A stretch of 63,057 nucleotides of DNA, the filler included, from Ferroacidibacillus organovorans (lineage in GTDB: Bacteria > Bacillota > Bacilli > Alicyclobacillales > SLC66), in assembly GCF_001642725.1 (NCBI RefSeq). It is 3 parts of 3 records of this genome, joined end to end, with 100 filler letters (N's around TTAATTAATTAA, not from the genome) between each part and the next. Parts side by side here need not be neighbours in the genome. Positions count along the whole stretch, not along the records: positions 51,236 to 63,057 come from NZ_LSUQ01000068.1; 2 more parts are not named here. One strand, given 5' to 3'. The position numbers and the translations under genes were made by a program. How positions within the stretch are numbered: position 1 is the first letter of the stretch; each line of letters opens with the position of its first letter. This document shows, piece after piece, positions 769 to 63,057 of this stretch. Below the pieces are notes generated by a model. It did not search any database, had not been told where the DNA came from, and was given only the letters and a program-made list of their open reading frames with translations.

Positions 769-2037
769 TTACACATTTACTTTCGACAAGCCGATTAACA
801 GCATAAGATTTCGCATGATATGGTACGGATCTTTAACGGGTAGAGCGACAACCTTATCCAGTGGTAGCCCTTGGCGATTCCTTTTTTGTAGCCACTCTCC
901 CACAGTGTGATCCGGATTGGGAAACACAGAAAACGTATACTGATGGAGTTTCTCCGCTATATCCTTACATTCCTGATCGCGAGTCAATGTCCACCCCAAC
1001 CATGCAGCATATAGAAATTCTGTATGCACCCACCATAATTTCATATCCCACGTATCAAGGATTTGCTCTTCATACACTGAACCTGAGTTTCTGCCAAATG
1101 GGGCTCCCCCATTTAACCCGACAAAGCGGAATAGCCCGCCATACTGATCATCCCACGCAAGATTAAAGGTGTGCTTTAAAACGAGCAAACAGCGATCAAT
1201 CATGTTGCGGTCCGATAATTCGTGCGCAGTCTCCATGATCATCCACATGCTCTCAGCCGTATGACCAGGCGCGATATGTTCATAGAGAAGCGTTTTTTTC
1301 CACGCATCCTTGTATAATACATCTTTGACTACATGTTCTCGGAGAACATGAGCTTGCCCATCGCATTGATTCCAGATGGCGTCGATATGGCGGAGAGTAT
1401 GTTTCATCGCTGTTCCCACACGCGAGTCTCCAATTCTCTTAAAAGCCTTGTAACATTCAAAACTAAGGTTAAGCAGAATCATGGGGATTCCATGAACCGT
1501 CAATTCTTTGGGAACGATATACGGCTCAGTCACAATGTCGTCCGTTTTGACCCTCAGCAAAATGTCCTGATAAAGATTCCATGAAAAATGTAATAATTCT
1601 TTGTCACCTAACAAATCCGCATACTCAATAAGCCCGAGACACACAAAACAATCCCCATAGATACTTGCGTCCAAAGTTTTTTGTTCTCCAACATATTTAG
1701 GTGTTCCATCCTCCGAAAGTACAAACGCGCAATGACCATTGTCTAAAAATACGTGTTCAAGCAAAAAGGATGCTGTCTTTTTTGCCGCTTCCATAATTAA
1801 ATCTTCATTTATGAGAAGATCTCCAGTACTTGCAAGGCGGACAAGACGAGCTGCCAACCATAGAAAACGTCCCTGCGACCATGTGTATTTATCTCGATGG
1901 ATCAAGACAGTCCCATCCATGGCAAAACAAGTGTAGATGCCTCCTCTTTCTAAGTCCAAGGCGTTCTTTGTCCAAAATGGCAGGATGACATTTTCGAGAT
2001 GTTCCTTATAGAAATTTACAATGGAATCAAATTGCAT
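769..2037 (-). CDS. AGE-family epimerase/isomerase (N-acylglucosamine 2-epimerase-like)
   Basis: ILPFW, KYTWSQGR, PGHxxE, WDxxYGG, KLWWVHTE and KDPYH motifs. Confidence 0.88.
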   Translation of the reverse strand: MQFDSIVNFYKEHLENVILPFWTKNALDLERGGIYTCFAMDGTVLIHRDKYTWSQGRFLWLAARLVRLASTGDLLINEDLIMEAAKKTASFLLEHVFLDNGHCAFVLSEDGTPKYVGEQKTLDASIYGDCFVCLGLIEYADLLGDKELLHFSWNLYQDILLRVKTDDIVTEPYIVPKELTVHGIPMILLNLSFECYKAFKRIGDSRVGTAMKHTLRHIDAIWNQCDGQAHVLREHVVKDVLYKDAWKKTLLYEHIAPGHTAESMWMIMETAHELSDRNMIDRCLLVLKHTFNLAWDDQYGGLFRFVGLNGGAPFGRNSGSVYEEQILDTWDMKLWWVHTEFLYAAWLGWTLTRDQECKDIAEKLHQYTFSVFPNPDHTVGEWLQKRNRQGLPLDKVVALPVKDPYHIMRNLMLLIGLSKVNV

Positions 2038-2060
2038 ATGTATCTCTCCGCCCCTTTTAT

Positions 2061-3446
2061 TTACTCAAGTGCGGGGATATCAGGTTTTCTTTCTGAATAC
2101 GTAACACGCTGCGGAATGCCCCTTACATAAAAATCCTCCATCGTCTCTTTGCCATATAGATGTAGTCCGGGAGGCCCTTGATGTGCCGTGGACACCAGTG
2201 GATCGTATCCAAGCGTCGCACGATTTTGATATTCCCAATCGGCCAGATACCCATTAAGGATTTTCGCCATATCTTGATGCATCGTCCAGACATTGGTTTG
2301 TTCATAAACATCGCTCTCTCGATCAAATAGTTGCTGATCCGGATAATTCCATTCACCACTGTGCAGCGTTCGAATTAACTTCCAGCGGTCTGTGACGACG
2401 CCGCGCTGCGCAGTATACAAGCCGTGCCCAATCACAAGATGTGAACGTCCCTTCACGTTTTTCTCATCCAGATAAGGCCACAGCGATTCGCTGTCCCACT
2501 CGATCGGTTTAGCAATTTGAAATGCCTCACAGATTGTTGCAGCAATGTCAAATTGATACACCAATGCCTGACATGTGCGACCCGCCCCAGCACCTCGCGG
2601 AAACTTCACGATAAGGGGAATATGATTCACCGTATCCACAATACTCCAGTGTTCCACATAAACGCCGTGCTCCCCTAATCCTTCACCATGGTCAGCTGCA
2701 ATAATGATCATCGTTTCATCAAGGATTCCTTTGCGTTCAAGCAAATCGAGAATCTGCCCTACGTGAAAATCTACATAGCGAATCTCTGCATCATATTCAT
2801 TAACCATTGCCGCATACTTGTCGTAGGAATGAATACCCATCATACTGGCGGAGTGCCAAAACCGATCATTTTGATGGCGAGCAACTGCCTCATCATCAGG
2901 AAAAGCTGGAAGATCATGCTCACTCATGGCATTGACCAGCGCGTGTGGAGCATCATAGATTGCGTGAGGATCCCAATATTGTACATACAAAAAGAAATCG
3001 TCTTGCGCATTTTCCTCAATCCACGGCAATACTTGTTCATTCATTTTCCACGCCGGTGTCTGTTGAAAACGCCAGCCCCTAGGATCGTGAAATTCTTCCC
3101 ACTCCATATAAAACCATGGTGATGGATGTCGACCAAAAGTGGAAAAGGCAGCCGTCCGCACACCATGCTCTCTGAGAACGGCCGGTATTGTACGTGTGTG
3201 CAAAGGCATCGCTAATCCTGTTGTACCGTGCGTCACAATACCAGTCCTAATCCCAAACGTTCCACTGATCAATGCGGCTCGCGAAGGCATGCACGGGCTG
3301 TCCGAAGTGTAGCACTGTGCAAATCGCATACTCTGCATCGCCAATCGATCGATATTCGGCGATGTGGGTCGCTTATACCCATAGCAATGTAAATGATCTG
3401 GTCTGAGGCTGTCGATATCGATATAAATGACCTTCACTGAACCCAC
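2061..3446 (-). CDS. Formylglycine-dependent sulfatase (Cys-type)
   Basis: IDIDSLRPD, CMPSRA (CxPxR), WDPH and ADHGE motifs. Confidence 0.9.
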   Translation of the reverse strand: MGSVKVIYIDIDSLRPDHLHCYGYKRPTSPNIDRLAMQSMRFAQCYTSDSPCMPSRAALISGTFGIRTGIVTHGTTGLAMPLHTRTIPAVLREHGVRTAAFSTFGRHPSPWFYMEWEEFHDPRGWRFQQTPAWKMNEQVLPWIEENAQDDFFLYVQYWDPHAIYDAPHALVNAMSEHDLPAFPDDEAVARHQNDRFWHSASMMGIHSYDKYAAMVNEYDAEIRYVDFHVGQILDLLERKGILDETMIIIAADHGEGLGEHGVYVEHWSIVDTVNHIPLIVKFPRGAGAGRTCQALVYQFDIAATICEAFQIAKPIEWDSESLWPYLDEKNVKGRSHLVIGHGLYTAQRGVVTDRWKLIRTLHSGEWNYPDQQLFDRESDVYEQTNVWTMHQDMAKILNGYLADWEYQNRATLGYDPLVSTAHQGPPGLHLYGKETMEDFYVRGIPQRVTYSERKPDIPALE

Positions 3447-25739: not shown

Positions 25740-25839
25740 NNNNNNNNNNNNNNNNNNNNNNNNNNNNNNNNNNNNNNNNNNNNTTAATTAATTAANNNNN
25801 NNNNNNNNNNNNNNNNNNNNNNNNNNNNNNNNNNNNNNN
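25740..25839. other. Artificial contig linker
   Basis: N44-TTAATTAATTAA-N44, a spacer with stops in all frames. Confidence 0.97.
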
Positions 25840-51135: not shown

Positions 51136-51235
51136 NNNNNNNNNNNNNNNNNNNNNNNNNNNNNNNNNNNNNNNNNNNNTTAATTAATTAANNNNNNNNN
51201 NNNNNNNNNNNNNNNNNNNNNNNNNNNNNNNNNNN
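51136..51235. other. Artificial contig linker
   Basis: N44-TTAATTAATTAA-N44. Confidence 0.97.
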
Positions 51236-52234
51236 TACGTGTATAACTCAGAAGCCCACAGCCTGGATGTAGATCCCGAGAAACTGGATGTCTACAACTT
51301 CATAAAGCACCGGATTTTGAGCGGTACCACGTGTAGCGGCGTCTGCTGGGAACTCAACCGCCAGGGCATCCAGTCACCGAAAGGAAAACTGTGGTCTGAA
51401 AGCGTGCTCTACCGGCTCATCCTGAACGAAGTGCATCTTGGTCGCGTCGTGTACGGCAAGACCAGCGGTGGGCTGCACAAGAAACGCAAAGCTGCGCCAT
51501 TCAAAGTGATCCCGCGCGAAAATTGGATCGTCGTCGAGAACGCGCACCCGGCAATCAAAACGCCGGAGGAACATGCGGAAATCGTCACCCTACTCGAAAG
51601 CCGCCGGATTCAGCCCAAGCACGCCCGTCGTGGCACCTATCTGCTCTCTGGCCTACTCCACTGCGGCAAATGCGGCTACTCCCTACAGTTTCAGCCGAAA
51701 CCAAACGGTCGCACACTCGTGAAGAAGTGCCAAAAGACGGATGCCTTCGGGAATTGTTGTGGCAATCGCGGGATCGAACTCGAACACGTGGAAAAAGCGG
51801 TGATGGAGAGTTTGCGTGAACACGAGGCGGAACTACTGAAAACGCCGGTTGAGACCAACGAATCGGACTTCCCAACGGAGCATCTGCTGCACACCAAAGA
51901 ACGAGAACTCGAATCGTTACGGGACGGAGTCAATCGGCTCAAGGACTTATTCGTGATGGGCGATGTGAATAAAGCGGAGTACAAAACGCGGCTGGAACGC
52001 CTGAAGGATCTGATTGTGAAAAAAGAGAACGAGTACGAGCAATTGAAGGAGAGCCTTGACGGCTGCTCGCCCCTTATCCACGCCGAACGGCTGCAGTTGA
52101 TTGATGAGCTCAAAGCGTCCTGGACAACCGCCATCGACGTAAAAGAGCGCAACCGGCTTATGAAGTTGATTATTGAGCGGATCGAATACAGGCGAAACTG
52201 GGATGACATCGATATTCACGTGAAGTTTCGATGA
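51236..52234 (+). CDS. Large serine recombinase, 5'-truncated by the contig edge
   Basis: Recombinase domain (LNRQG...W...LILNEVHLG...HPAI), Zn ribbon LLSGLLHCGKCG, coiled coil and IERIEY tail. Confidence 0.9.
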   Translation, partial: YVYNSEAHSLDVDPEKLDVYNFIKHRILSGTTCSGVCWELNRQGIQSPKGKLWSESVLYRLILNEVHLGRVVYGKTSGGLHKKRKAAPFKVIPRENWIVVENAHPAIKTPEEHAEIVTLLESRRIQPKHARRGTYLLSGLLHCGKCGYSLQFQPKPNGRTLVKKCQKTDAFGNCCGNRGIELEHVEKAVMESLREHEAELLKTPVETNESDFPTEHLLHTKERELESLRDGVNRLKDLFVMGDVNKAEYKTRLERLKDLIVKKENEYEQLKESLDGCSPLIHAERLQLIDELKASWTTAIDVKERNRLMKLIIERIEYRRNWDDIDIHVKFR

Positions 52235-52250
52235 TTCGCGCGTTTTGCGC

Positions 52251-52805
52251 CTACTGAAGTCCTTTCAAACTCTTATAGCTCTCGATGGTACGCAACTTCG
52301 CCGATTGAATTTCCATGATGATTTCTTCCACCGAAACGCCGCGCTCAGAGGCTTCGCGGTCAGCAACACGAAGCCGGTCATCATTTTCCGCGATTTCATG
52401 TAAGCAATCGGAAAACGGTTGAGCGGGCAAGATTCGGGTTTTATGGTGATGTTGCAGCGCTTGAAGTCGCTTATCGCCCGTAATCAAAAAATCTGCCAAT
52501 GCCTCCTTCGCCGTTGCCAAAATAAAATCGTCCTCCCGATGACTTGCGACTCGGGGTACAAACAGTGGGATCGGATGAACGACTGAAGTGGCTCTCAAAC
52601 TCATGACAAACAAGCCAACCTGTTCACGACTCAGCCGCGACGAGAAATAAGGGTTCGCCAAGGTCCGCTCCAATTCATCCAGAATAGGCTTCGATATATG
52701 CAGATGAAATAGCCCCGATAGCCACGCTTCCCGAATGTCCGCAATCGGTCCACGTCCGGCTCGAATGGCTGAAGCCAAGATATTCGTGTCCAATACGACC
52801 CGCAT
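52251..52805 (-). CDS. PIN-family toxin
   Basis: MRVVLDTNIL, DDFILATA and LITGDK motifs; coupled to the antitoxin gene. Confidence 0.9.
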   Translation of the reverse strand: MRVVLDTNILASAIRAGRGPIADIREAWLSGLFHLHISKPILDELERTLANPYFSSRLSREQVGLFVMSLRATSVVHPIPLFVPRVASHREDDFILATAKEALADFLITGDKRLQALQHHHKTRILPAQPFSDCLHEIAENDDRLRVADREASERGVSVEEIIMEIQSAKLRTIESYKSLKGLQ

Positions 52806-53119
52806 TATGCCTCTCCCTCAGTACCTTGCTCGGCTGATCCTGAGCGTACGCTCGATAGAGCGCGTTCCACTTCTTTGTTGAACTCATCCTCCGGAAAGTC
52901 AACGAAAGCATCCCGCATTTGATCCATCACACGGCGCAGGTCCACCAGACGACTGTCACGCTGCTTCAACCATTCCAAATCATCCGGACTCACCAGACCA
53001 GCAACTGGGACACCGCTCTTTTCTACAACCACTCGCGCCTGATCCCGCGACACCAAATTGATGACTTCGCTCCAATGTTCCCTTACATCTGAGGATTTCA
53101 TAACCTGTTGCTCTTTCAT
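52805..53119 (-). CDS. Phd/YefM-family antitoxin
   Basis: SSDVREHWSEVINLV...VVVEKSGVPVAGLVS. Confidence 0.88.
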   Translation of the reverse strand: MKEQQVMKSSDVREHWSEVINLVSRDQARVVVEKSGVPVAGLVSPDDLEWLKQRDSRLVDLRRVMDQMRDAFVDFPEDEFNKEVERALSSVRSGSAEQGTEGEA

Positions 53120-53135
53120 GCCCCCACTCCATCCC

Positions 53136-53172
53136 GTACGTCATCGTACCCTTTTGTACGCCAATTATAACA
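53136..53172 (-). promoter_or_regulatory. Toxin-antitoxin promoter and operator
   Basis: Extended -10 TGtTATAAT, then GTAC at 53156, 53146 and 53136 (10-bp period). Confidence 0.6.
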
Positions 53173-53282
53173 TGACAGATTGTGCTATGCGAGTAGGAAA
53201 TCGCGGAGAGAGGTATCTCAAAGTGAAGGGAAGTAGTACAAAGTAATCAAATGCAAATAAATATCTCTACTTCTTGAAACTA

Positions 53283-53301
53283 TCTCATCTGGAGTAGTTT
53301 A
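53283..53301. repeat. 19-bp direct repeat, copy 1 (candidate att arm)
   Basis: TCTCATCTGGAGTAGTTTA, identical to 62328-62346. Confidence 0.85.
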
Positions 53302-53312
53302 TGGACCCGCTA

Positions 53313-53532
53313 TCAGTGACAAGTCGGCATAGGAAACTCTATCTGTAGGTTTACTATTCATAGCTCCGAAGGGCTACGAATAGCCGATTGAGAGAAACAC
53401 AGCCTTAGATTCCCTCTTGGCTTTCTGGAACGCCTCATCGCCCCATGGAAACCAATCGACCGGATTGTGCACGTGTTGGAGAAGATACGGAGATTTTTCA
53501 TGTATCAAACGATTCGGTCTGTTATCTGACAT
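53313..53532 (-). pseudogene. yyaL: 5' fragment of yyaL (DUF255 thioredoxin-domain protein) with a 52-nt insert
   Basis: [62 protein letters not shown] (53532-53374); T-C-H codons resume at 53324-53316. Confidence 0.85.
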
Positions 53533-53588
53533 CGGAATCAAACTCCCTTGCTTATGACTTTCATTAATTCATTATACCCCCACCACAG

Positions 53589-53617
53589 AAAAAACATCGG
53601 CTCATAGCAAGCCGATG
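53589..53617 (-). terminator. Intrinsic terminator downstream of the helicase operon
   Basis: CATCGGCT-N7-AGCCGATG-T6. Confidence 0.75.
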
Positions 53618-53762
53618 CCTATACGTCTGGTTATGTGGTTCCTTACCGATTTCATCTTGTCATTGAATTCGCGGTTGCAAACCCTTACAAACAGCCTTCT
53701 CTGAGATTCCTCAATCTACTTCAAAAGTTTTGTTGGCACCCGGGTGTTCACCGCATCTCTTG

Positions 53763-54038
53763 TTAAAGTTTAGGTGCCCTTTTAATCTCTCTATGATGTT
53801 CATCAACAAATCGACAACTTATCTCATCTTGTAACCCAAACTGAGAAGCAACAAATTCCCTTACTATATTTGGATTTTCCCTCTGTGCACTATCCCACAG
53901 CTTCGTTGCCATTTCATGCGTCACGGATACACTCAGAACGTCTCTGTCTAATAAGACCCCTTCAGGATCGTGGGCGATTGTAAATTGGTATCCGTCTTGA
54001 GTCTTCAAACTCTGAATTACCACCACAATGCTCATCAC
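53763..54038 (-). CDS. Hypothetical protein
   Basis: 91-aa ORF with an AAAGGTGA RBS-like sequence; no family recognised. Confidence 0.5.
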   Translation of the reverse strand: MMSIVVVIQSLKTQDGYQFTIAHDPEGVLLDRDVLSVSVTHEMATKLWDSAQRENPNIVREFVASQFGLQDEISCRFVDEHHREIKRAPKL

Positions 54039-54246
54039 CTTTCGCTACATACTTTTCAAACCATGTGCGCCGTTTTGAAGATATCTTGACACATCCGACT
54101 TTTCTGGATAATCGGCCCAAATATAATCCTCGCAGCCATGTCTCTTCTTTTGTGGATAGAGACCATTCTATACGTAAAATTCGAAGCAAGAACCAACAAG
54201 AACCAGAAATGCTTCTGATTGCTTAACAATGTCTACAAAATAGTAT

Positions 54247-57200
54247 TCACTCGACTCCACTAGTAACAATAATCCGCGCATTGCGCAATAGCATTTCCTC
54301 ACCCCATCCACCACTAAGCCATTCCCTCCGGGATTGCCTGACCCACATGGAGCGTAACTCCTCACTTGCCATATCTGCGGGTACTGGTGCCTTGGATTGA
54401 AGCGCATGGGCACACGTCCTTTGTCTAAAACCAAATCGAAACCACGAGAGAGTTCCAAGTGAGTCACACCCGCAGCGAATACACAAAGGTAGTGCTTGTA
54501 ATTCATCCGTTACCCTCCCAGATTGTTCGCTCGAAAAGACAAGATGTTCATTCAGCGCAACGAAACACCCTGCGTCGAGAGCCAAAGGTTCAAACACAGT
54601 CCTAACAAGTTTAAACACCGCAGGTATTGGATTTGCTCCTGAACTGCGGCCATTTGAAACCGAGTCCTTGCTATTGGACAAGTACTTTTTCGCTATATCT
54701 GCATATGTTGCTCCTACCATGTACAACTTGAGGAGATCGCGCAATTCATGCCATAGAGACATCCAACCTTGCGGCAAATTCCAGTCTGGCTCGTCGATAT
54801 ATCGTCCTTCTCCAATTTCATCACGCATTTTCCTGAGCACCGTCTGTCCTTTGTACGATTCGTCCGGAAGAATATGATTGAATCGGTTGGGAGGCATATG
54901 AGCCAAAACTTCGACGAAAATGTCCAGCCAATCGAGCAAAGAAAATTGGGCAGATTCGATTGGATTCGGTATTCCTCTACGGAGATAGGCACTGAGCATT
55001 CGACTAGCACGGAAAAAATCCATACTGGAAACCGCCGCCACCGAATTTAGCCATTCCGGATATTCCGGCTTCATGAAAAAGTTGTCACGAAGTTCTTTGA
55101 TTCGCTCGCGCGCACTATCTAGCCAGAGTTCTTGATGACCTCGATAAACCTGAAAGGCCCCTAGTGTCTTTGAGAGTGTCTTACCAGTATCAATTTCCCC
55201 ACCTTCTACGAGTAACGAAGTCAGTGCAAGTTCCGAGTTAGATGCTGTCTGCGGATTAAAGCTACCCGAGGCTACCGTAGATATAAACCGTTCGAGTGGG
55301 CTGTGAACTTGAACAGATGCATCCTGCTCTCCCATGACAGGATAGTCATCCAATGCACGCCCCCCATTTACTTCCTGTCCAACAGGTGCCCCAAATGGAT
55401 GATCAGATACTAAGAGTCCTATTCCCTGATTTGAAAATCCAGGGCGACCAGCACGCCCAAATCCATTCAGAATTAACGAATTAATCCTTGACAGGCCATA
55501 TACATTGTCAACTTCGTCTCTGGAGTCTCCAAGGGACGTTCCGGAAATCACCACCGCGACGGCCGGTAAATTAAGCCCTTGCGCAAGAGTTCCTGTTGCG
55601 AACATCAATTTTGACCGTTGATTCACAAACATCCTCTCGCTAGTAGCCTGCTCTACCTGTAACATCGCGCTGCTATGTACCGCAATGCCTTTTCCAAACA
55701 AATCCCAAAGAACCGTCGGTACGCCAAGTTCCGCATCCGCAATATTAAGCCAAGCTTGTACAACGGGCTCAAATTCTTCAACTCTGTTTATTAAAGGCAA
55801 ATTTTCTGCCGACCGAACTGCACTACTGAAAGCATGATGCCTGCTCGAGAGAATGAAGTTGATAACTGGTATTTGAGCTTGGGCAAACCGTTCGGCAACC
55901 AATCGTGATACGGTGTTTTTCCAACTCTCGAATTCTGGTCTCGACTTTCCCTTAGTCGCTTTTACCGGGAACTTTGCTGGAAAACCACGCAACAAGTAGT
56001 CTTCAGGACCGTCATGTGTCCAAGCACCCGAAAGGCCTACTAATAAAGCTAGGGGGATCTCGAAATTAACATTTTTTCGATTTCCTTTAAGTTGGTTCGC
56101 CTGCTGCCTAGCCTCATTGAATAAGTCGTTGAGCGTCTCGGTATTCAAAATGACCAATCCTCGTAAGGTTCGTGACGGTCTCCATTTGATCGGTGTCTCC
56201 ACCGCACCAGGATCGTGAACTGACCTCAGCCATTCAGCCAGCTCTTCTGGATTACTTATCATGGCTGACATCAAAAGAAACTTAATATTAGGTGCGACAT
56301 TCATCAGTTCGGCCAAGACAATGTCTGCCGCCAAACCTCTTCCCTCATCATTTAGAAGATGACATTCATCAAAAACACACAATGCACAGTTTTCGAAACC
56401 TTCCGGTTGTAGTCTTAGGACTAGAGCACATTTTTCCGGTGTCATGACAACAACGTCCGAACCTATAATCAATTCGTCGGCATCTTGAAGCTGCGAATAT
56501 TCACCTCCACCAACAAATGCACGGACTTCAACGTCCTTCATGGCATGCAGTGCCGCTTTCAGATCACGGCGAATCTGGTGAGCTAATGCATTGGTGGGAG
56601 CAAGATACAGGACCCATCCCTTGGATAAAGCATGTGTGATAGCCAATTCGGCTACAAAACTCTTACCACTTCCCGTTGGCATAGCAATCACAGCATCTAC
56701 TTGTGGCCCAGGCAGACATTTTTCTATGTATTCCAATGCAGTTGGCCACAAGTATGGACGCCCTCTTTGGTCGTCTGTTCCACGAGCCCGTGCACGTAAA
56801 TAACTCCGAAAATCATCAAGAAACTCCCCGTCGTCCGACACCGGTTCGGGTACAGCGTGAACTACAGCCCGCTCGCTTAGAAGACGAACTGTTGCATTGA
56901 GGATGCTAGAAAAGTGATAGATGTCTGCAAATTCCGTATTCCTACTGGTTTCCTGTGATCCCACAGAGCGATGTACTCTTTCCAGAATTGAGAATGCTGT
57001 GTCTAAGCTGACATTTTCAATGCCCGCTAGCCAATTCAAGAACAACGAAATTCCGCGGGTTAACTCGGAGTATAAATGGTAACGAATATCGTCAATTAAT
57101 TGCCCGTAGGTCATTCGTGCATCGGGATCGATTAGATTTACATCATCGACCTCAGGAAAAGATGAGTGATATACATCCCCGCGACATAGACGTAGAAGAT

Positions 57201-57702
57201 AGGTAATTAATTGGTTGGCGCTCTCTTCAACAGGTGAGCTACCTGCTCCAATATATTCAAGATCCGCAATTACGCTAACGGCGTTGACATCATACCCACC
57301 AAACATATAGAGAAGAGCGGATTCAAGTGATACATAGTTGCTTTCCAGCCTGAAGGAATCGGTCTCTTCTCCAATTGCCCGGCCACTGATCATGAACTTT
57401 AATAGCGACAATGCCTCTGCCGCCACGAACGCACATGACCTCTTCACACCCCATGGTACATCAACACCGTTTAAAGAATCGAATATTGCGATGGTTTCAA
57501 GCGTATTTGCCAGGTTCCTAAGGTAGTTAACCACTTCAGAAAAAGAATTTAAATCCTCTTCAGCACTGACCTCCCCCAGTTGGATTTTCTGTCTGAGTAT
57601 ATAAAAGTACGCTTTAGACAAGTATCGTCGGCACTCATTTGAATCCAGTCCAGGCAAGTCTGGCAATTGCCGAAGCAGTTGTTGAGCATAGCTGTCAAAC
57701 AT
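54247..57702 (-). CDS. Ski2-like DEAD/DEAH helicase, Hachiman HamB-like
   Basis: MPTGSGKS, TPEK, DECH, MSA, ATGTLAQGLNLP and GRAGR motifs; 1-nt overlap with the upstream gene. Confidence 0.85.
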   Translation of the reverse strand: MFDSYAQQLLRQLPDLPGLDSNECRRYLSKAYFYILRQKIQLGEVSAEEDLNSFSEVVNYLRNLANTLETIAIFDSLNGVDVPWGVKRSCAFVAAEALSLLKFMISGRAIGEETDSFRLESNYVSLESALLYMFGGYDVNAVSVIADLEYIGAGSSPVEESANQLITYLLRLCRGDVYHSSFPEVDDVNLIDPDARMTYGQLIDDIRYHLYSELTRGISLFLNWLAGIENVSLDTAFSILERVHRSVGSQETSRNTEFADIYHFSSILNATVRLLSERAVVHAVPEPVSDDGEFLDDFRSYLRARARGTDDQRGRPYLWPTALEYIEKCLPGPQVDAVIAMPTGSGKSFVAELAITHALSKGWVLYLAPTNALAHQIRRDLKAALHAMKDVEVRAFVGGGEYSQLQDADELIIGSDVVVMTPEKCALVLRLQPEGFENCALCVFDECHLLNDEGRGLAADIVLAELMNVAPNIKFLLMSAMISNPEELAEWLRSVHDPGAVETPIKWRPSRTLRGLVILNTETLNDLFNEARQQANQLKGNRKNVNFEIPLALLVGLSGAWTHDGPEDYLLRGFPAKFPVKATKGKSRPEFESWKNTVSRLVAERFAQAQIPVINFILSSRHHAFSSAVRSAENLPLINRVEEFEPVVQAWLNIADAELGVPTVLWDLFGKGIAVHSSAMLQVEQATSERMFVNQRSKLMFATGTLAQGLNLPAVAVVISGTSLGDSRDEVDNVYGLSRINSLILNGFGRAGRPGFSNQGIGLLVSDHPFGAPVGQEVNGGRALDDYPVMGEQDASVQVHSPLERFISTVASGSFNPQTASNSELALTSLLVEGGEIDTGKTLSKTLGAFQVYRGHQELWLDSARERIKELRDNFFMKPEYPEWLNSVAAVSSMDFFRASRMLSAYLRRGIPNPIESAQFSLLDWLDIFVEVLAHMPPNRFNHILPDESYKGQTVLRKMRDEIGEGRYIDEPDWNLPQGWMSLWHELRDLLKLYMVGATYADIAKKYLSNSKDSVSNGRSSGANPIPAVFKLVRTVFEPLALDAGCFVALNEHLVFSSEQSGRVTDELQALPLCIRCGCDSLGTLSWFRFGFRQRTCAHALQSKAPVPADMASEELRSMWVRQSRREWLSGGWGEEMLLRNARIIVTSGVE

Positions 57703-58592
57703 TACAATCCCTCCACAAATTCCCTCATCAAGTCTGATATCTCTTCAAAAAATCTATCGAAGTCCCGAATTATATGTGGCATGACAATAATAGATTCCTT
57801 GTCTACGGACAAATGGCGGGAGAATACATTATGAGGCTGGGTCCAATCCATAATGGTTGCAGCATCGTAGTGAGGGTTAGGCATATATGTGCGGAGTTTA
57901 TTCCAAAAGAGTCCCCTTACTTGCTCCTGGACATCTCGCGGCAAACCAATCCGCATTGCGTTGACATCCTGGCGAATTCTCGTGGTGTGCTTATCCCCAT
58001 CAATTTCCTTGAAATATTTGATTGCTTTCTCAATTGCCCGGCTAGGGTCATTTTTGTACGCTTTTGATTCAATCACAGATAAACCGATACCTTGATCATT
58101 CACATACAACGCAAGCCCGTCTAGCCCATGGTCCTTAGCTTTAACGTGGACATCCTTTACCGCAATCACCCTTCCGGGCGGATGAATTTCAGGCTTCTTG
58201 TTCGCAAGAACTAAACAAAGATGCCAAATTGCTTCAGCCAACCAGGGGTTTCGCTCATCTCTTTTTTGAACTTTAGTTAAAGAGTCATTCGATGCTCCAA
58301 CTATTTCTGATACGCTCCCACGCAGATCAACTTTGCCCACGTCGGAGTCCTCCAGCAAATACGCTTTTATATTCAGTGCACAGTCGATTGCTGACGCCCT
58401 TAGGCCAACGAGATACTGTGCGATCAAGTGTTTGGAGTCACGATCATTGTCCCACCCCGTTACGATTACGGTATGGTGGGTTGAAGATTCGTACTTCTCA
58501 ATCCGTAATAAGCTTTGAAGAGCTAGAATTGACTCGTTCATTGCTGATTCTATTTTTTCTGTTAAATTCAGTATGGATTTTTCTGCAGTCAC
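57702..58592 (-). CDS. PD-(D/E)XK nuclease-like protein, Hachiman HamA-like
   Basis: AE...HGLDGL...IESKAY catalytic pattern; about 300 aa and coupled to the helicase. Confidence 0.65.
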   Translation of the reverse strand: MTAEKSILNLTEKIESAMNESILALQSLLRIEKYESSTHHTVIVTGWDNDRDSKHLIAQYLVGLRASAIDCALNIKAYLLEDSDVGKVDLRGSVSEIVGASNDSLTKVQKRDERNPWLAEAIWHLCLVLANKKPEIHPPGRVIAVKDVHVKAKDHGLDGLALYVNDQGIGLSVIESKAYKNDPSRAIEKAIKYFKEIDGDKHTTRIRQDVNAMRIGLPRDVQEQVRGLFWNKLRTYMPNPHYDAATIMDWTQPHNVFSRHLSVDKESIIVMPHIIRDFDRFFEEISDLMREFVEGL

Positions 58593-58782
58593 GTTTTGTG
58601 CCCCTTTTTTCCTCTTTAGGGATAAATTATAAAAAGTATTGGGAACACATTCCGGCTTGGGACGATATGCGGAAGTTAAATTATGTAACTAGGGTTTAAA
58701 CGACTGAGAGGGTTATTTGCCTAACCCAAGTGTATTATAGCGCAAAGGGAACTGCTACTTGCTATGCCACAGTGGATTTATT

Positions 58783-59322
58783 TCAAAGGTCTTGTGGCCG
58801 CAAAATAAGTCTGCGAGAACACTCATAACAAATGGTATACCTGTACTGTCCCCAGATTATTTTCTTCGCCGTTTCACTGGCTACGTCAACAAGAATGTCT
58901 CGAATCGACTCTCCAAACGTAGTTCCGACTTTAGTAAGGATTTTCTTTATCCGAGCAGCGGCAACCTTCGTTTGTGGAGAGTCCGTAACCAACTCACCAA
59001 CGTTCTGTTCAAACACTTCCTTGTCGGCTTCCTCCAACTCAGATTCGGCGAGGTCAATAGCCGCCTTAATACGTCTCGAAGTCCATGGGAAGGGTTCACC
59101 ACAAGACTGGCAAAATGCTGTTGGATCATATACATAGCTAAGATCGACGACTCCCTCTACTTTGTATTCTCCCTGAATTGCATGATTACACGCAGAACAC
59201 GCATTTATCGTTTTCGCACCGCATACTGGACAGAAGCTTTTATTAAACTCTGGTGACTCAATCATTGTGCTGTTTGTCGGATGTCCATTCAAGCAAACCT
59301 GTGCAACATCGAATTTGCCCAT
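58783..59322 (-). CDS. DUF2321-like zinc-binding protein
   Basis: AQVCLNGH, FCPVCG, CSAC and FCQSCGEPFPWT motifs; AAGGAGG RBS. Confidence 0.8.
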   Translation of the reverse strand: MGKFDVAQVCLNGHPTNSTMIESPEFNKSFCPVCGAKTINACSACNHAIQGEYKVEGVVDLSYVYDPTAFCQSCGEPFPWTSRRIKAAIDLAESELEEADKEVFEQNVGELVTDSPQTKVAAARIKKILTKVGTTFGESIRDILVDVASETAKKIIWGQYRYTICYECSRRLILRPQDL

Positions 59323-59770
59323 GATTCAGTATCCTCCTTAGAACGCCTACTTCTAAATGTAAGTCACTTCAAACTCACATCCGAAGATACGGCGGCGGTC
59401 TCACACTTAATTGTAAATCTTTCGATTACTGGTGATTCTGTGTTCTGTGGATACTATTCGTGGCCTTGCAGATATTCCGTGACTTTCTCATTCACTTTTT
59501 CTATCTCGTCCTTAAATGAGGATTTGCCGAACTCTTCGGTAAGATTACCCCCGAACCGCACTACCTATCATACCCAATTATCTGATAACATGTACAGAAG
59601 TACATCGGAGTAACTCATCGGAAGAATAGCAATAGATTCTCCTAAACACTGCGTAATGTAGACATTTTGAAATATTGCGTCATGGAAAACCGGATGGTGA
59701 TGATGACGACCAAAGACGGACTTGTCCCACAATTGACATCAAAGTGAATTGGAAAGGTGAATCGGACGCC

Positions 59771-60247
59771 ATGCCTGTATCATTCCGACACTCGGCTGGA
59801 TTCGGTAAGCGTGTTGAATACTATATTATCGGTCTGATGTTGAAAGAAGGATTAGACGTTTATGTACCGCTCGTTGACGATAATGCGGTGGATGCAGTCG
59901 TCCGCAAATCCGACGGAACATTCATTGAAATTCAGATAAAGGCTCGAGGCTATGATATAACAATGGGAGACGGAGCGCTATTTGCGGCGATATCTCACCA
60001 GCCTAGGGAAAACTATTATTTCATCTTCTACTTAGAAAGACTTCAATGGATGTGGATGATGTCCTCAGAGGAATATTTGCTGGAGTGCGTCACCAACAAG
60101 AAGGGGAAAAATGCGGGCAAAACATCAATCTGGTTCAACGGAACCAAGACAGACCAGTAAACAAAGGAAAAATATGAGTATCCCAAGGAGAGATACAACA
60201 AATATCTTGCCGAGGACATGAAAGTGAAGTCTCGCTTGCCTGTTTGA
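59771..60247 (+). pseudogene. Small PD-(D/E)XK nuclease-like protein, probably with a premature TAA at 60158-60160
   Basis: E...DVYVPLVDDNAVD...EIQIKAR; the frame stays open for 28 codons after the stop. Confidence 0.55.
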
Positions 60248-60807
60248 ACTGAAATTTACCAATCTCCTGACGGTGATTTCGCGTTTGAAAAATATTCACT
60301 GGCCCCAACATAGGGAAGTGTTAGCCCATCTTGTATAGGGTGTCCCTTACTTTATTCTTCACTGTTTATGTCGCATGCTGTAATAGATATGGAGATGCTT
60401 CATGTGTGAACCGATTCAATTTTCAAATCTCGAAATCCTACTTTCAAAAATCACCGAAATAAGATATGATCCCGAATCCATTTTACTAAAAGCACGAAAA
60501 AAGCACCGACATGAGGATTCACATGATCAGTTTGATGCTCAACACGTAAATTGAACATTTGTGTTTAATTCAAATTATAGTTGGCTTGAATTGCTGAAGA
60601 GTCGGAGTCGCACTGGTCCTGGGCTATTCAGCTTGTCCCGAGCGCCGTATAATGTTGGAAGACAGTTAGGGTTCGAAATTCCTAACGCCAGAAAGTATCG
60701 TATAAGACCACCAAACATGGTTAATTGAGCGAAAGTCTAGATTGGGTAGGCTGATTTTATAAAGGGATGCATTTCATACAAGAGGGCTAAAATGAGGAGC
60801 GAGGAGA

Positions 60808-62037
60808 TTGGAACAGCTGTCAACCAAAATCCAAAAAAACGTAACGATAATCACAACATTAGTAAGTGAAGACGTATGGAGTGTTGCACGGGACAATTAT
60901 GAAAGGGGTAGCTACACAAATTCGATAACTAACTCACTGCAGTACGTTAATGAGATTGTGCGAGAAAAAAGCGGTCTAAGTCTGGACAACACCAAACTGA
61001 TGGATGAAGCGTTTCTGGGCCAGAGTCCTAAATTGAAAATCAATAAATTACAAACGCAGACCGAAAAGGATATTCAAGCAGGGGTCGGCTATCTGTTAAA
61101 AGGACTATGTCTAGCTGTACGTAATCCCCGAGCACACGAAAGGTACAATGATAACAAGGAAGTCGCCGATACGATTATACAATTTGTCAGCTATGTTCTC
61201 GATTTTGTTCGTAATTCGAAACAACCATCACTAGTAGAAGACTGGCTAGAGTTTGTCTTTGATGAGAATTTCAACAATTCCAAGGAGTACTCCAAAATTG
61301 TTCTTCAGGAAATCCCTGAAAAGAAGAAATATGAATTGCTGGTGAATATCTTTAGATTCAGGGAGAGGGCTAGAGAGAACCAATTGAACAATCTCATCAA
61401 TGAACTTATGGAAAGTATCACATCGGATGAATGCGATGAATTTATTTACAACTTGAATAAAGAGTTGCTTCAGTGTGCCGACAACACTGAATTAAGGATG
61501 TTTCTAAGTATCTATCCACCCGAGAAGTGGAGTTTGCTAGTGCCAATTACGAGGTTGAAAATCGAACACATGGTCAAAAAGTCGCTTGAACAAGCGAAAA
61601 TGGTTGGTCAATATGCTGATCCGTTTGATAATGACTCATGGGAATATCACTGTAATCAGCAAGGTGTTTTATCGACTTTCGGCACAAATTCTGTTACCTA
61701 CTTTGAAACAAAGGAAGAAATATTAACAATACTTGGACACAAATTGTCCGACGAAGATCCTGACATCCGAAGTTTCGTTATTGAACATTATCAACGTGTT
61801 GTATTCGGTAGTGAATCAACAAAAAACTTGGCGTTGATATACGGAATAAAGAGGTCTCTTTCCTACCACGACCGAAATACATTTGAACATTTTAAATTTT
61901 TAATTGATGCGATTGGTGATCACGAGACAAGAGCTGTATTCGGCAATGAAGTTGCATCCACCCAACAATATTTTGACAACCAAGAAACAGAAAGTGAGAA
62001 GCCTCACAAGGATTCGGAGGATGAATTGCCCTTCTGA
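60808..62037 (+). CDS. TIGR02391 (Ymh) domain protein
   Basis: VREKSGL...LMDEAF...TEKDIQAG...RNPRAHE; GAGGAG RBS and TTG start. Confidence 0.82.
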   Translation: MEQLSTKIQKNVTIITTLVSEDVWSVARDNYERGSYTNSITNSLQYVNEIVREKSGLSLDNTKLMDEAFLGQSPKLKINKLQTQTEKDIQAGVGYLLKGLCLAVRNPRAHERYNDNKEVADTIIQFVSYVLDFVRNSKQPSLVEDWLEFVFDENFNNSKEYSKIVLQEIPEKKKYELLVNIFRFRERARENQLNNLINELMESITSDECDEFIYNLNKELLQCADNTELRMFLSIYPPEKWSLLVPITRLKIEHMVKKSLEQAKMVGQYADPFDNDSWEYHCNQQGVLSTFGTNSVTYFETKEEILTILGHKLSDEDPDIRSFVIEHYQRVVFGSESTKNLALIYGIKRSLSYHDRNTFEHFKFLIDAIGDHETRAVFGNEVASTQQYFDNQETESEKPHKDSEDELPF

Positions 62038-62327
62038 TATCCCTGCGCACTCCTTCTTTCGCAACTGAAAGCGGCTTAACCGGTCTACTTAGCCAATATT
62101 GATGCTCAAAGAAATTCACCGTGGCTAATTGTCACGATTCAAATCCATTTGTGCATTCGAAGGCATCGCTTTACCCGAGTCATATGCACTGCAAATAGTC
62201 GTTTTACAGATTTCCCTTCTATTTTGATTGAATTTCGCATGCAAGCTTTAAATGTTTGTAGAGAAGATACTTTTTAAGCTGAAGGATGTGAACAAAAGTA
62301 AATATATTGAATTAATCTTTGCTAATC

Positions 62328-62346
62328 TCTCATCTGGAGTAGTTTA
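62328..62346. repeat. 19-bp direct repeat, copy 2
   Basis: TCTCATCTGGAGTAGTTTA, identical to 53283-53301. Confidence 0.85.
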
Positions 62347-62988
62347 CCTCATCTTTGACAGTACCCCAGTCACGACGCGGGTTTGTAGGCCCTATTTTGC
62401 CCTACAACACAAAAAGCCCCGTTCTCACAGGGCTACGTTCGCTTGATCGGATCTTATTTTGCTTCGGCTTTGATATCGCGAAGATGGATCGTCTTTGCGG
62501 GGAGTGGGATTTGCAGCATCTTGAGAACTTCGGCCAATCGTTCTGACGCCGGGGGAACGCTCAGGAATTCTTTCCCCAGAAACTCCGCCCTCAGCACATG
62601 CCATCGCCTTAGTTCCTTGACGATCCATTCCCCGGTGTAGTGACGATCCTCTAGATCCTTTTGTCGGATCGCGCGTTCCTCTTCATCGGATACCCGTTGC
62701 ACCTCTTGTACTTGTTGATCCCACGCACGTCGGTACATTACTTGCATCTCTTGCTCAAACAGATAGGCCAGCACGCAAATGAAAATGTGACCGCGTACCC
62801 GTTTCTCATTCCAGTGGTACATTGGCCCGACATCCAGAAAATTCTTGATCTCCCGAAACGCCCGCTCAACGTTCATGAGCGTCTTGTACGAGGTGACCAC
62901 CTCTCCTGCAGGAAGCGTCGTGTTGGTCTTGATCACGAACTTACCGTCACGAAGCGATTCTTTCAACAGCGCGACTTCGTTTCGCGTA
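62347..62988 (-). mobile_element. IS1634-family element, 3' part (transposase C-terminus 62454 to about 62988)
   Basis: DGKFVIKTN, YKTLMNVERAFREIK (YREK) and YHW...RVRGHIFICVLAY; candidate terminus CTGTCAAAGATGAGG. Confidence 0.8.
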
Positions 62989-63057
62989 TGTGTTTGATAA
63001 CTTAATAGTTGACCACGTGGGCGTTCTTTGACAACTGAAAAGTTGACCACCCCAAAA
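62989..63057. mobile_element. Probable IS21-family terminus inserted in the IS1634 transposase
   Basis: Begins with TG; two 26-bp tandem repeats (62991-63016, 63025-63050; 22/26 identical); the sequence ends here. Confidence 0.55.

Follow-up and report, generated by a model that had tools for sequence, protein, structure and literature searches.

How can a bacterial gene be expressed when its coding sequence ends at a termination codon and is taken up again, at the next codon of the family motif, only some tens of nucleotides later? This question is raised by a locus on the minus strand of the genome of Ferroacidibacillus organovorans (Bacillota, Alicyclobacillales; RefSeq assembly GCF_001642725.1), in which the start of yyaL is followed by a coding gap of 52 nucleotides (nt). 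The locus lies within a stretch of 63,057 nt, hereafter called the window, in which runs of N at 25740-25839 and 51136-51235 join contigs C36, C37 and C68; positions 51236-63057 represent one whole contig (C68) of the 98-contig genome, and the genes to the left of 51236 are thus not neighbours of the yyaL start. A preliminary description had likened the gap to the ribosomal bypass signal of gene 60 in phage T4, and proposed that it was either a chromosomal bypass element or a tiny intervening element controlling yyaL. The layout reported in that description is exact in the window, comprising the peptide motif SIGYS, a UAG within a stem capped by UUCG, the gap of 52 nt and the resumption at ACT TGT CAC TG; its two caveats are equally accurate, namely that the triplet before ACT is CCG and not UCG, and that this copy ends just downstream. 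Our analysis favours, with moderate confidence, the combination of two layers in yyaL: a programmed bypass resembling that of gene 60, and its carriage by elements encoding large serine recombinases (LSR).

The gap in yyaL and its distribution

The yyaL stretch preceding the gap in the window, hereafter exon 1, encodes a peptide that starts with MSDNRPNRL and matches positions 1-48 of the Pfam profile PF03190, the YyaL thioredoxin-like domain, right up to the stop codon (E 7.5e-19). This peptide is 79% identical to exon 1 of the intact gene present on contig C54 of the same genome. Within the gap (coordinates in table 1), a GAG stands 9 nt before the final CCG and an in-frame AUG directly precedes this triplet, while the 3′ part (GGAGTTTCCTATGCCG) also ends the gap of two intact yyaL genes of our collection (loci L033 and L079). 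The stem has 14 positions, of which 11 form Watson-Crick pairs, two G-U pairs and one a C-A mismatch; the 86 nt around it fold with -22.4 kcal/mol in RNAfold (z = -2.57), a stability equalled by 4 of 200 shuffled sequences. Directly after ACT TGT CAC TG, the window copy runs into TGA and TAG. The take-off hairpin was also considered as an intrinsic terminator and was not flagged as such, the sole terminator-like site lying upstream, at 53620-53592.

A Pfam search of the whole genome retrieved seven copies of PF03190 positions 1-48, each with one TAG, together with one match to positions 48-162. On contig C54, exon 1 is followed by a gap of 54 nt containing TAG and TGA, then by ACC TGT CAC TGG TGT CAC GTC ATG and an open frame through the rest of yyaL, with Pfam positions 1-48 and 48-162 abutting across the gap. 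The seven copies of exon 1 are 77-90% identical, most differences falling at third codon positions, and every copy has a start codon and an upstream region of its own; in all of them the similarity ends right after ...TGTCACTG. The hairpin pattern was found nowhere else in the genome, the tRNA-Ser complement of which has the anticodons CGA, UGA, GGA and GCU. Since the architecture recurs seven times in this genome and in yyaL of most relatives, it lies beyond chance.

The same interruption is widespread in Bacillota, as deduced from samples of 61 genomes of the order (24 genera), 401 of the class and 401 of the phylum, in which relatives are not independent. In the order, PF03190 is matched in 55 of 61 genomes, and 51 loci were examined; three of these are cut by contig ends and 48 have both parts of the gene, with the gap lying at the same codon boundary in 43 of the 48 and five being uninterrupted. 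The insert is therefore found in otherwise intact yyaL genes, that of contig C54 included. Among the 43 gapped genes, 40 have TAG and hairpin in gaps of 33-61 nt and three have short gaps of 19-20 nt devoid of hairpin; gapped loci were seen in Alicyclobacillus species, Sulfoacidibacillus thermotolerans and metagenome-assembled genomes (MAGs) of Alicyclobacillaceae. Exact removal of the gap restores the junction SIGYS/TCHWCH as it is in uninterrupted orthologs (L009-L013), and no genome of the order sample with an interrupted gene contains a second, uninterrupted yyaL match.

Beyond the order, the family is present in 153 of the 401 genomes of the class sample, 119 of them belonging to other orders; at least 20 of these have a gene that is split or carries an in-frame insert with stops, and all 19 genes fetched from other orders show a gap of 17-59 nt at the same boundary. 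In the phylum sample the family occurs in 199 of 401 genomes, and the eight rows having stops inside a full-length match all correspond to same-boundary gaps of 12, 15 or 21 nt, while about 13 further genomes look split by match scores alone. Aneurinibacillus thermoaerophilus and a Syntrophomonadaceae MAG are among the gapped loci outside the order. A pattern scan of genome contigs returned at least 28 loci with yyaL context, most of the listed matches being due to chance.

Decoding of the interrupted genes

One view of such a gap would be that it is the scar or arm of a mobile-element insertion, in a yyaL gene that is dead or dying and not decoded across the interruption. Several features fit this view: the 3′ half of the gap coincides with an LSR arm (see below), the window copy and other displaced fragments are non-functional beyond doubt, and many landing triplets are mismatched. 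The coding sequences on the two sides of the gap tell against it. Compared over the final 45 codons of exon 1, the 902 pairs formed by interrupted genes show median proportions of nonsynonymous (pN) and synonymous (pS) differences of 0.133 and 0.771, values resembling those of uninterrupted genes (0.148 and 0.918); in the 450 codons after the gap, compared in a protein-guided alignment, the corresponding values are 0.339 and 0.776 for interrupted and 0.304 and 0.837 for uninterrupted genes. As synonymous sites are saturated, the pN/pS ratios understate the constraint. None of 48 genes has a stop within the 450 codons after the gap, and the codons of TCHWCH vary synonymously across genes. Moreover, a genome with an interrupted gene contains no other full-length match, the gene is transcribed in the sense direction where RNA was analyzed (L038, below) and the gap also occurs in genes without an LSR arm within it, namely those of the 33-nt class and of other classes of the phylum. 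A decaying yyaL is thus quite improbable: both exons are under purifying selection and, both being kept as coding sequence, the second frame must be entered by ribosomes no later than at the Thr codon.

RNA data were obtained for one species, at locus L038, in which exon 1 (1901-2062, minus strand) is followed by a gap of 55 nt (1846-1900) with UCG as both take-off and landing codon. Twenty RNA runs from five studies contain this stretch, and four of them were mapped. In two stranded runs of raw reads the gap is continuously covered in the sense direction, at depths of about 90-100 and 240-350 against 1-5 on the other strand, and no joint or deletion at the gap reached the 2% threshold; RNA contigs of 3019 and 5745 nt cross it unbroken. 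The gap thus stays in the mRNA and splicing is not supported in this species. In the strain of one run (X21), we also observed about 25 differences from the reference within the 500 nt after the gap (1245-1750, in the region 1200-2400 compared) and none between 1751 and 2134, which includes exon 1 and the gap, a pattern that fits a 5′ module either recently exchanged or strongly constrained.

These RNA data bear directly on the possibility that the gap is removed, either from the transcript as a mini-intron or from the DNA by an excision restoring a gap-free gene. Excision would have precedents, given that LSR elements of other Firmicutes restore genes in this way (skin in sigK, SPbeta in spsM), and the preliminary description had noticed the likeness of the end of the window gap to the 3′ terminus of a group II intron. 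This likeness is not borne out, since Rfam returned no match within 52900-53900 at E up to 1 and the gap is retained in the RNA of L038; a group II intron or other known RNA was discarded also in view of the insert measuring only 52 nt. Gaps are carried even by the outermost displaced fragments, and excision cannot, therefore, yield a gap-free gene; order-sample genomes with a 33-nt gap show one yyaL match and no displaced fragments. Removal at either level is scarcely credible, and the tiny intervening element of the preliminary description is disfavoured with it, while the bypass element proposed alongside agrees with the comparisons presented below, the landing codons fitting in about half of the gaps. 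Group II introns as such are present in the genome: contig C86 encodes a reverse transcriptase/maturase of this kind (RVT_1, RVT_N and GIIM domains; L162 5302-7332), which lies about 5 kb from another yyaL start and is unrelated to the gap.

In the window and in the 40 genes of the order having TAG and hairpin, the 5′ arm of the stem-loop contains the take-off codon. We scored a helix of 14 pairs in an ungapped alignment of 47 distinct sequences, finding that 83.6% of the cells are paired, compared with 35-44% when the partner is slid, a value reached by none of 500 shuffles. Most unpaired cells derive from nine rows with a CCCC/GGGG tip, which are one register off in the ungapped alignment. 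At pair 12-35, 29 sequences have U-A and 10 have C-G, which amounts to one compensatory pair, and G-U variants occur at four pairs (in 6, 15, 7 and 4 sequences), all arising by changes in the non-coding 3′ arm; such G-U pairing is possible in the sense RNA only. The covariation envisaged in the preliminary description is thus present; as the sequences are related, it amounts to few independent events. The hairpin of L038 folds with z = -3.5 and that of the C54 gene with -38.9 kcal/mol (z = -4.6). In the latter (L007 1625-1715), a predicted outer helix lengthens the take-off hairpin by pairing CUCCA of exon 1, in the Leu-Ser-Ile codons, with UGGAG of the gap; this helix would mask the Shine-Dalgarno-like (SD-like) motif until opened by the ribosome.

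The anatomy of the gap was then compared in 59 distinct combinations of take-off codon and gap from intact genes, to which eight from other classes were added to give 67. Overall the gaps span 12-61 nt and, in all 67, the first codon is a stop (TAG in 52, TGA in six and TAA in one of the 59). The length modulo 3 distributes the 59 gaps in residue classes of 31, 15 and 13, with 28 not being a multiple of 3. This distribution is difficult to reconcile with readthrough of the stop codon, which would add 4-19 residues before the CXXC motif: it could serve 14 of the 59 gaps, which are in frame and contain no further stop, and would suit the lengths of the eight gaps from other classes (12, 15 or 21 nt), but 45 of the 59 shift the frame or hold further in-frame stops, as illustrated by the 52 nt of the window gap and the in-frame TGA of the C54 gap. 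We consider readthrough very improbable.

Upstream of the last triplet, the gaps are enriched in SD-like motifs: GGAG, GAGG or AGGA ends 3-12 nt before it in 38 of 59 gaps, compared with 6.5 ± 2.2 (maximum 14) in 200 shuffles. Such motifs could equally serve a split gene, in which the stop would end a first chain and the C-terminal part would be reinitiated from within the gap, YyaL consisting of two chains. In 11 of the 59 gaps, including the window type with GGAG/GAG ... AUG CCG ACU, there is an in-frame AUG, GUG or UUG downstream of the final in-frame stop; in the other 48, including the organism's own intact gene and the classes of 33, 51 and 54 nt, no in-frame start is available, and the model calls for neither a matched landing triplet nor a stop placed within a hairpin. 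Reinitiation as the general solution is thus unlikely. Eight gap types, among them those of L026, L033, L035, L079, L112, L187 and L190, have an in-frame AUG two codons before the Thr codon, as does the window (53325-53342), with an SD-like motif 6-10 nt upstream of this AUG; these lineages may, besides bypassing, start the C-terminal part independently.

The last triplet of the gap can be read by the same tRNA as the take-off codon in 35 of the 67 gaps, in seven different codon pairs (UCG/UCG 27, UCC/UCC 2, UCC/UCU 2 and UCA/UCA, UCU/UCU, UCU/UCC and AGC/AGU one each); matched Ser landing codons, the occurrence of which the preliminary description had proposed to check, are therefore the commonest state. 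Identity with the take-off codon is found in 31 of the 67. Of the triplets inside the gaps, 0.7% fit the take-off tRNA and 9.9% have at least two of three bases in common with the take-off codon, compared with 35 and 60 of the 67 last triplets.

A side observation concerns the short gaps, many of which (19-21 nt; L186, L198, L224, L229 and L230, from different families and classes) share the stop followed by CGTTGGTTA, which repeats the (I/V)GY coding sequence just upstream, as if the gap had arisen by partial duplication; in L224 and L229 the repeat stretch can pair with the gap end (GUUGGUU ... AACCAAC).

Bypassing is the sole mechanism able to serve all gap classes, given that readthrough fails in 45 and restart in 48 of the 59 gaps, splicing is at variance with the RNA, excision never leads to a gap-free gene and decay is at variance with selection. 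On this comparative sequence basis, bypassing is probably the decoding route of the intact gapped genes. The ribosome would translate some 52-58 codons until a Ser codon (mostly UCG) occupied its P site and a stop codon (mostly UAG) its A site, the two codons being part of the 5′ arm of the UNCG-capped hairpin. Peptidyl-tRNA-Ser would then detach and the mRNA slide by 12-61 nt, with the ribosome held by the SD-like GGAG/GAGG, the last base of which is mostly 5-10 nt away from the gap end; one full YyaL would be the product. Bypassing of the gene 60 type also calls for a nascent-peptide signal; judged by eye, the peptides encoded by exon 1 are similar whether or not the gene is gapped. The hop itself, its efficiency and the roles assigned here to hairpin and SD-like motif are what we infer from the anatomy and conservation of the gap.

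Several observations weigh against this scheme, beginning with the 14 gaps open to readthrough and the 11 endowed with a start codon. The landing triplet misfits the take-off tRNA in 32 of the 67 gaps, being CCG in nine, UGG in six, UUU after UCC in four, GCG in three, UGC after AGC and CCA after UCA in two each and six others once each. CCG is combined with the take-off UCG in the intact C54 gene as well as in the window copy, whereas the pairs so far reported in the gene 60 family are all matched. The take-off hairpin is not present in the short gaps (12-21 nt), the short hairpin of the 33-nt class folds no better than shuffled sequences (z = -0.9), the covariation reflects few events among related sequences and the RNA data derive from one species. 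Furthermore, the recombinase arm of LSR-type gaps includes both the GGAG and the triplet before ACC, so that the conservation of both there can do without a ribosome, and the agreement of the take-off codon with the landing codon could stem from core homology between the attachment sites attP and attB. Regarding the misfits, UUU follows the take-off UCC in four gaps of different families (L023, L192, L194 and L199); it could pair with the anticodon GGA through one A-U and two G-U pairs and may thus be a tolerated landing codon.

Large serine recombinases at the yyaL site

The window copy is almost certainly a yyaL 5′ exon displaced to the left attachment site (attL) of an LSR element; as such it controls nothing, contrary to the regulatory role that had been suggested for it. 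The similarity to yyaL ends after the core shared by all copies, which makes a crossover at this point, at the TG of CAC-TGG, likely. Around this core we found the arms of the att sites, inverted repeats of 17-19 nt flanking a 16-nt spacer whose centre is the same TG, the left arm lying in the gap and the right arm in the element. The position of the crossover at these bases is deduced from the symmetry of the sequence and the point where similarity ends, and should be taken as putative. The right or P′ arm belongs to the GGAGTA/GGATTA type in 19 of 20 listed displaced copies from eight genomes, L219 being the exception. The attL sites are hybrids, every combination of left-arm and right-arm types being represented; in the window, a left arm of type iii, which is also that of the intact genes L033 and L079, is joined to a type-i right arm. 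These combinations are what serial integration into an already gapped gene would give.

The LSR of the window, cut by the contig end, is 66% identical to the full LSR of contig C72 (497 residues), which has all of the Resolvase, Recombinase and Zn_ribbon_recom domains and is encoded just upstream of an exon 1 copy; altogether, the genome has six LSR paralogs with 66-74% identity. In three more genomes every displaced fragment is followed, at 1-11 kb downstream and on the opposite strand, by an LSR homolog (3/3, 2/2 and 1/1, the last being broken). A free form of the element was sought among 72,556 plasmids and 50,697 phages, none of which matched 53270-53545 in blastn.

In Alicyclobacillales, the 3′ half of the gap would thus double as the left inverted-repeat arm of the LSR attachment site, and the elements would bring, at their right end, a promoter, exon 1 and gap. 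With such an end, each integration would swap the 5′ exon of the gene and leave the old one behind at attL. The window would display one of these leftovers in the order of old exon 1 with its type-iii gap, core, type-i P′ arm, Phd and PIN genes and LSR (table 1).

Table 1. Features of the yyaL locus and of the adjoining element in the window.
Feature	Position	Strand	Description
Displaced yyaL exon 1	53377..53532	-	52 codons, from ATG at 53532 to the take-off Ser codon UCG (53379-53377); peptide ends in AVFLSIGYS
Coding gap	53325..53376	-	Exactly 52 nt; UAG first (53376-53374), CCG last (53327-53325)
Take-off hairpin	53353..53384	-	5′ arm holds UAU UCG UAG; loop UUCG; 13 of 14 positions pair
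Core ACTTGTCACTG	53314..53324	-	Thr-Cys-His plus TG (ACT TGT CAC TG); common to all copies
P′ arm of inserted element	53289..53313	-	25 nt; reverse complement repeats the 3′ end of type-i gaps (C72, C86)
Phd/YefM antitoxin gene	52805..53119	-	First cargo gene after attL; Pfam PF02604, E 1.6e-7
PIN-domain toxin gene	52251..52805	-	Pfam PF13470, E 8.9e-15
LSR gene	51236..52234	+	C-terminal 332 residues, cut by the contig end; reads towards attL; Pfam Recombinase and Zn_ribbon_recom
Terminator-like hairpin of upstream gene	53592..53620	-	Separates off the displaced yyaL start as an independent unit

The DNA found between successive yyaL starts is rich in genes of defence type, as seen in the window (54247-62037) and at L157 (contig C8), L159 (C54) and L160 (C72). 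In the window these include a DEAD/ResIII helicase of 1151 residues with a partner of 296 residues, DUF2321 and Hypoth_Ymh. Contig C8 has a KAP NTPase, a QueC-like gene and TatD, a set that resembles the Qat system, plus DrmE; contig C54 encodes a NACHT/STAND NTPase of 1485 residues and contig C72 a caspase-domain protein. A defence island seems to have been built at the yyaL site by accretion.

Comparison with known systems

The insertion of LSR elements into coding genes is known in Firmicutes, SPbeta in spsM and skin in sigK being examples. The elements at yyaL share with them an LSR gene near one end of the element and a target inside an open reading frame (ORF), but they differ in bringing a replacement 5′ exon, in never leaving the gene gap-free again and in having an att arm within a stretch that translation would have to skip. 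Integrative elements at the ends of tRNA or other genes also carry a replacement end, and their tandem accretion leaves old ends behind; in yyaL, however, replacement affects the 5′ end together with its promoter, and colinear coding sequence is lacking at the junction.

Should the scheme proposed here be correct, LSR elements would dock inside an ORF, hide an att arm in the skipped stretch and leave their host with a working gene. It would also explain the repeated yyaL starts that mark islands of defence genes in these genomes. For annotation, it would imply that gapped yyaL genes look like pseudogenes or split genes to gene callers. The 67 distinct gaps at one site would offer a natural series, in culturable and genetically distant hosts that include thermo-acidophiles, for deducing the rules of take-off, sliding and landing, since the variants come with and without hairpin, with cognate and near-cognate landing triplets and with lengths of 12-61 nt.

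Bypassing of tens of nucleotides is established in T4 gene 60 and its phage homologs and in the mitochondria of one yeast lineage, according to Manning and Atkins (bioRxiv 10.1101/2022.08.31.505936). Reports of bypassing in yyaL, or in a comparable gene family of bacterial chromosomes, did not emerge from a literature search that left subscription journals largely outside its coverage, nor did anything relevant linking yyaL with a recombinase. We advance, tentatively and with somewhat less than even confidence, that yyaL may be the first cellular gene family, neither phage nor organellar, to be decoded by programmed long-range bypassing, across much of Bacillota, and that in Alicyclobacillales its cassette would be a portable module of LSR elements.

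In the gene 60 family, the take-off codon comes after about 46-58 codons and precedes a UAG, or sometimes a UGA, located in the 5′ arm of a stem-loop with the tip CC-UNCG-GG (Manning and Atkins, bioRxiv 10.1101/2022.08.31.505936; PMC5462505). The take-off and landing codons are matched or wobble-matched, with a mini-SD a few nt before landing, and the gaps range from about 20 to 50 nt (50 nt in T4), the short variants having a reduced hairpin; the cassette travels with the MobA mobile element, at the target site of that element (same sources). The yyaL genes resemble this arrangement in the stop after the take-off codon, the CC-UNCG-GG stem-loop, the take-off and landing codons of the 35 fitting gaps, the SD-like motif, the short variants with reduced hairpin and the mobile carrier. 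They differ from it in several respects: yyaL is a cellular host gene and not a phage topoisomerase, its take-off codon specifies Ser and not Gly or Asp, about half of its landing triplets are non-cognate and its carrier is an LSR element, with Phd, PIN and LSR genes as neighbours, in place of an HNH homing endonuclease. Membership in the T4 gene 60/MobA cassette family was consequently rejected, since host gene (PF03190) and carrier are different and no match was found among phages.

Beyond the hairpin, the sequence likeness to T4 is weak. The T4 gap (AF158101 2803-2852; L222) and the yyaL gap of L187 have the same first 14 nt (UAG, CC, UUCG, GG, CUA), and the gap of L168 shares with T4 the stretch TAAGAG(A/G)TTAT before landing. 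In global alignments of the T4 gap with the 59 yyaL gaps, the best tail score was 14, compared with 7.2 ± 1.4 in shuffles (2 of 2000), but this was the highest among 46 comparisons. We therefore claim no homology to the T4 cassette, the likeness being at the level of architecture and within what a shared design could give. If the bypass in yyaL is real, its association with LSR elements would constitute a bacterial counterpart of the gene 60/MobA arrangement, involving a different kind of mobile element, and a second, independent link between bypass cassettes and mobile DNA.

A further parallel is provided by the Byps of Magnusiomyces capitatus mitochondria, described in the same preprint as short inserts (27-55 nt) that interrupt essential ORFs, are spread by mobility and are presumed to be bypassed (bioRxiv 10.1101/2022.08.31.505936). 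Like Byps, the yyaL gaps are short inserts in a cellular genetic system, presumably bypassed and spread by mobility. Unlike Byps, which are many inserts in many genes of one organelle, they occupy one site in one gene across a bacterial phylum, and have a stop codon and an SD-like motif.

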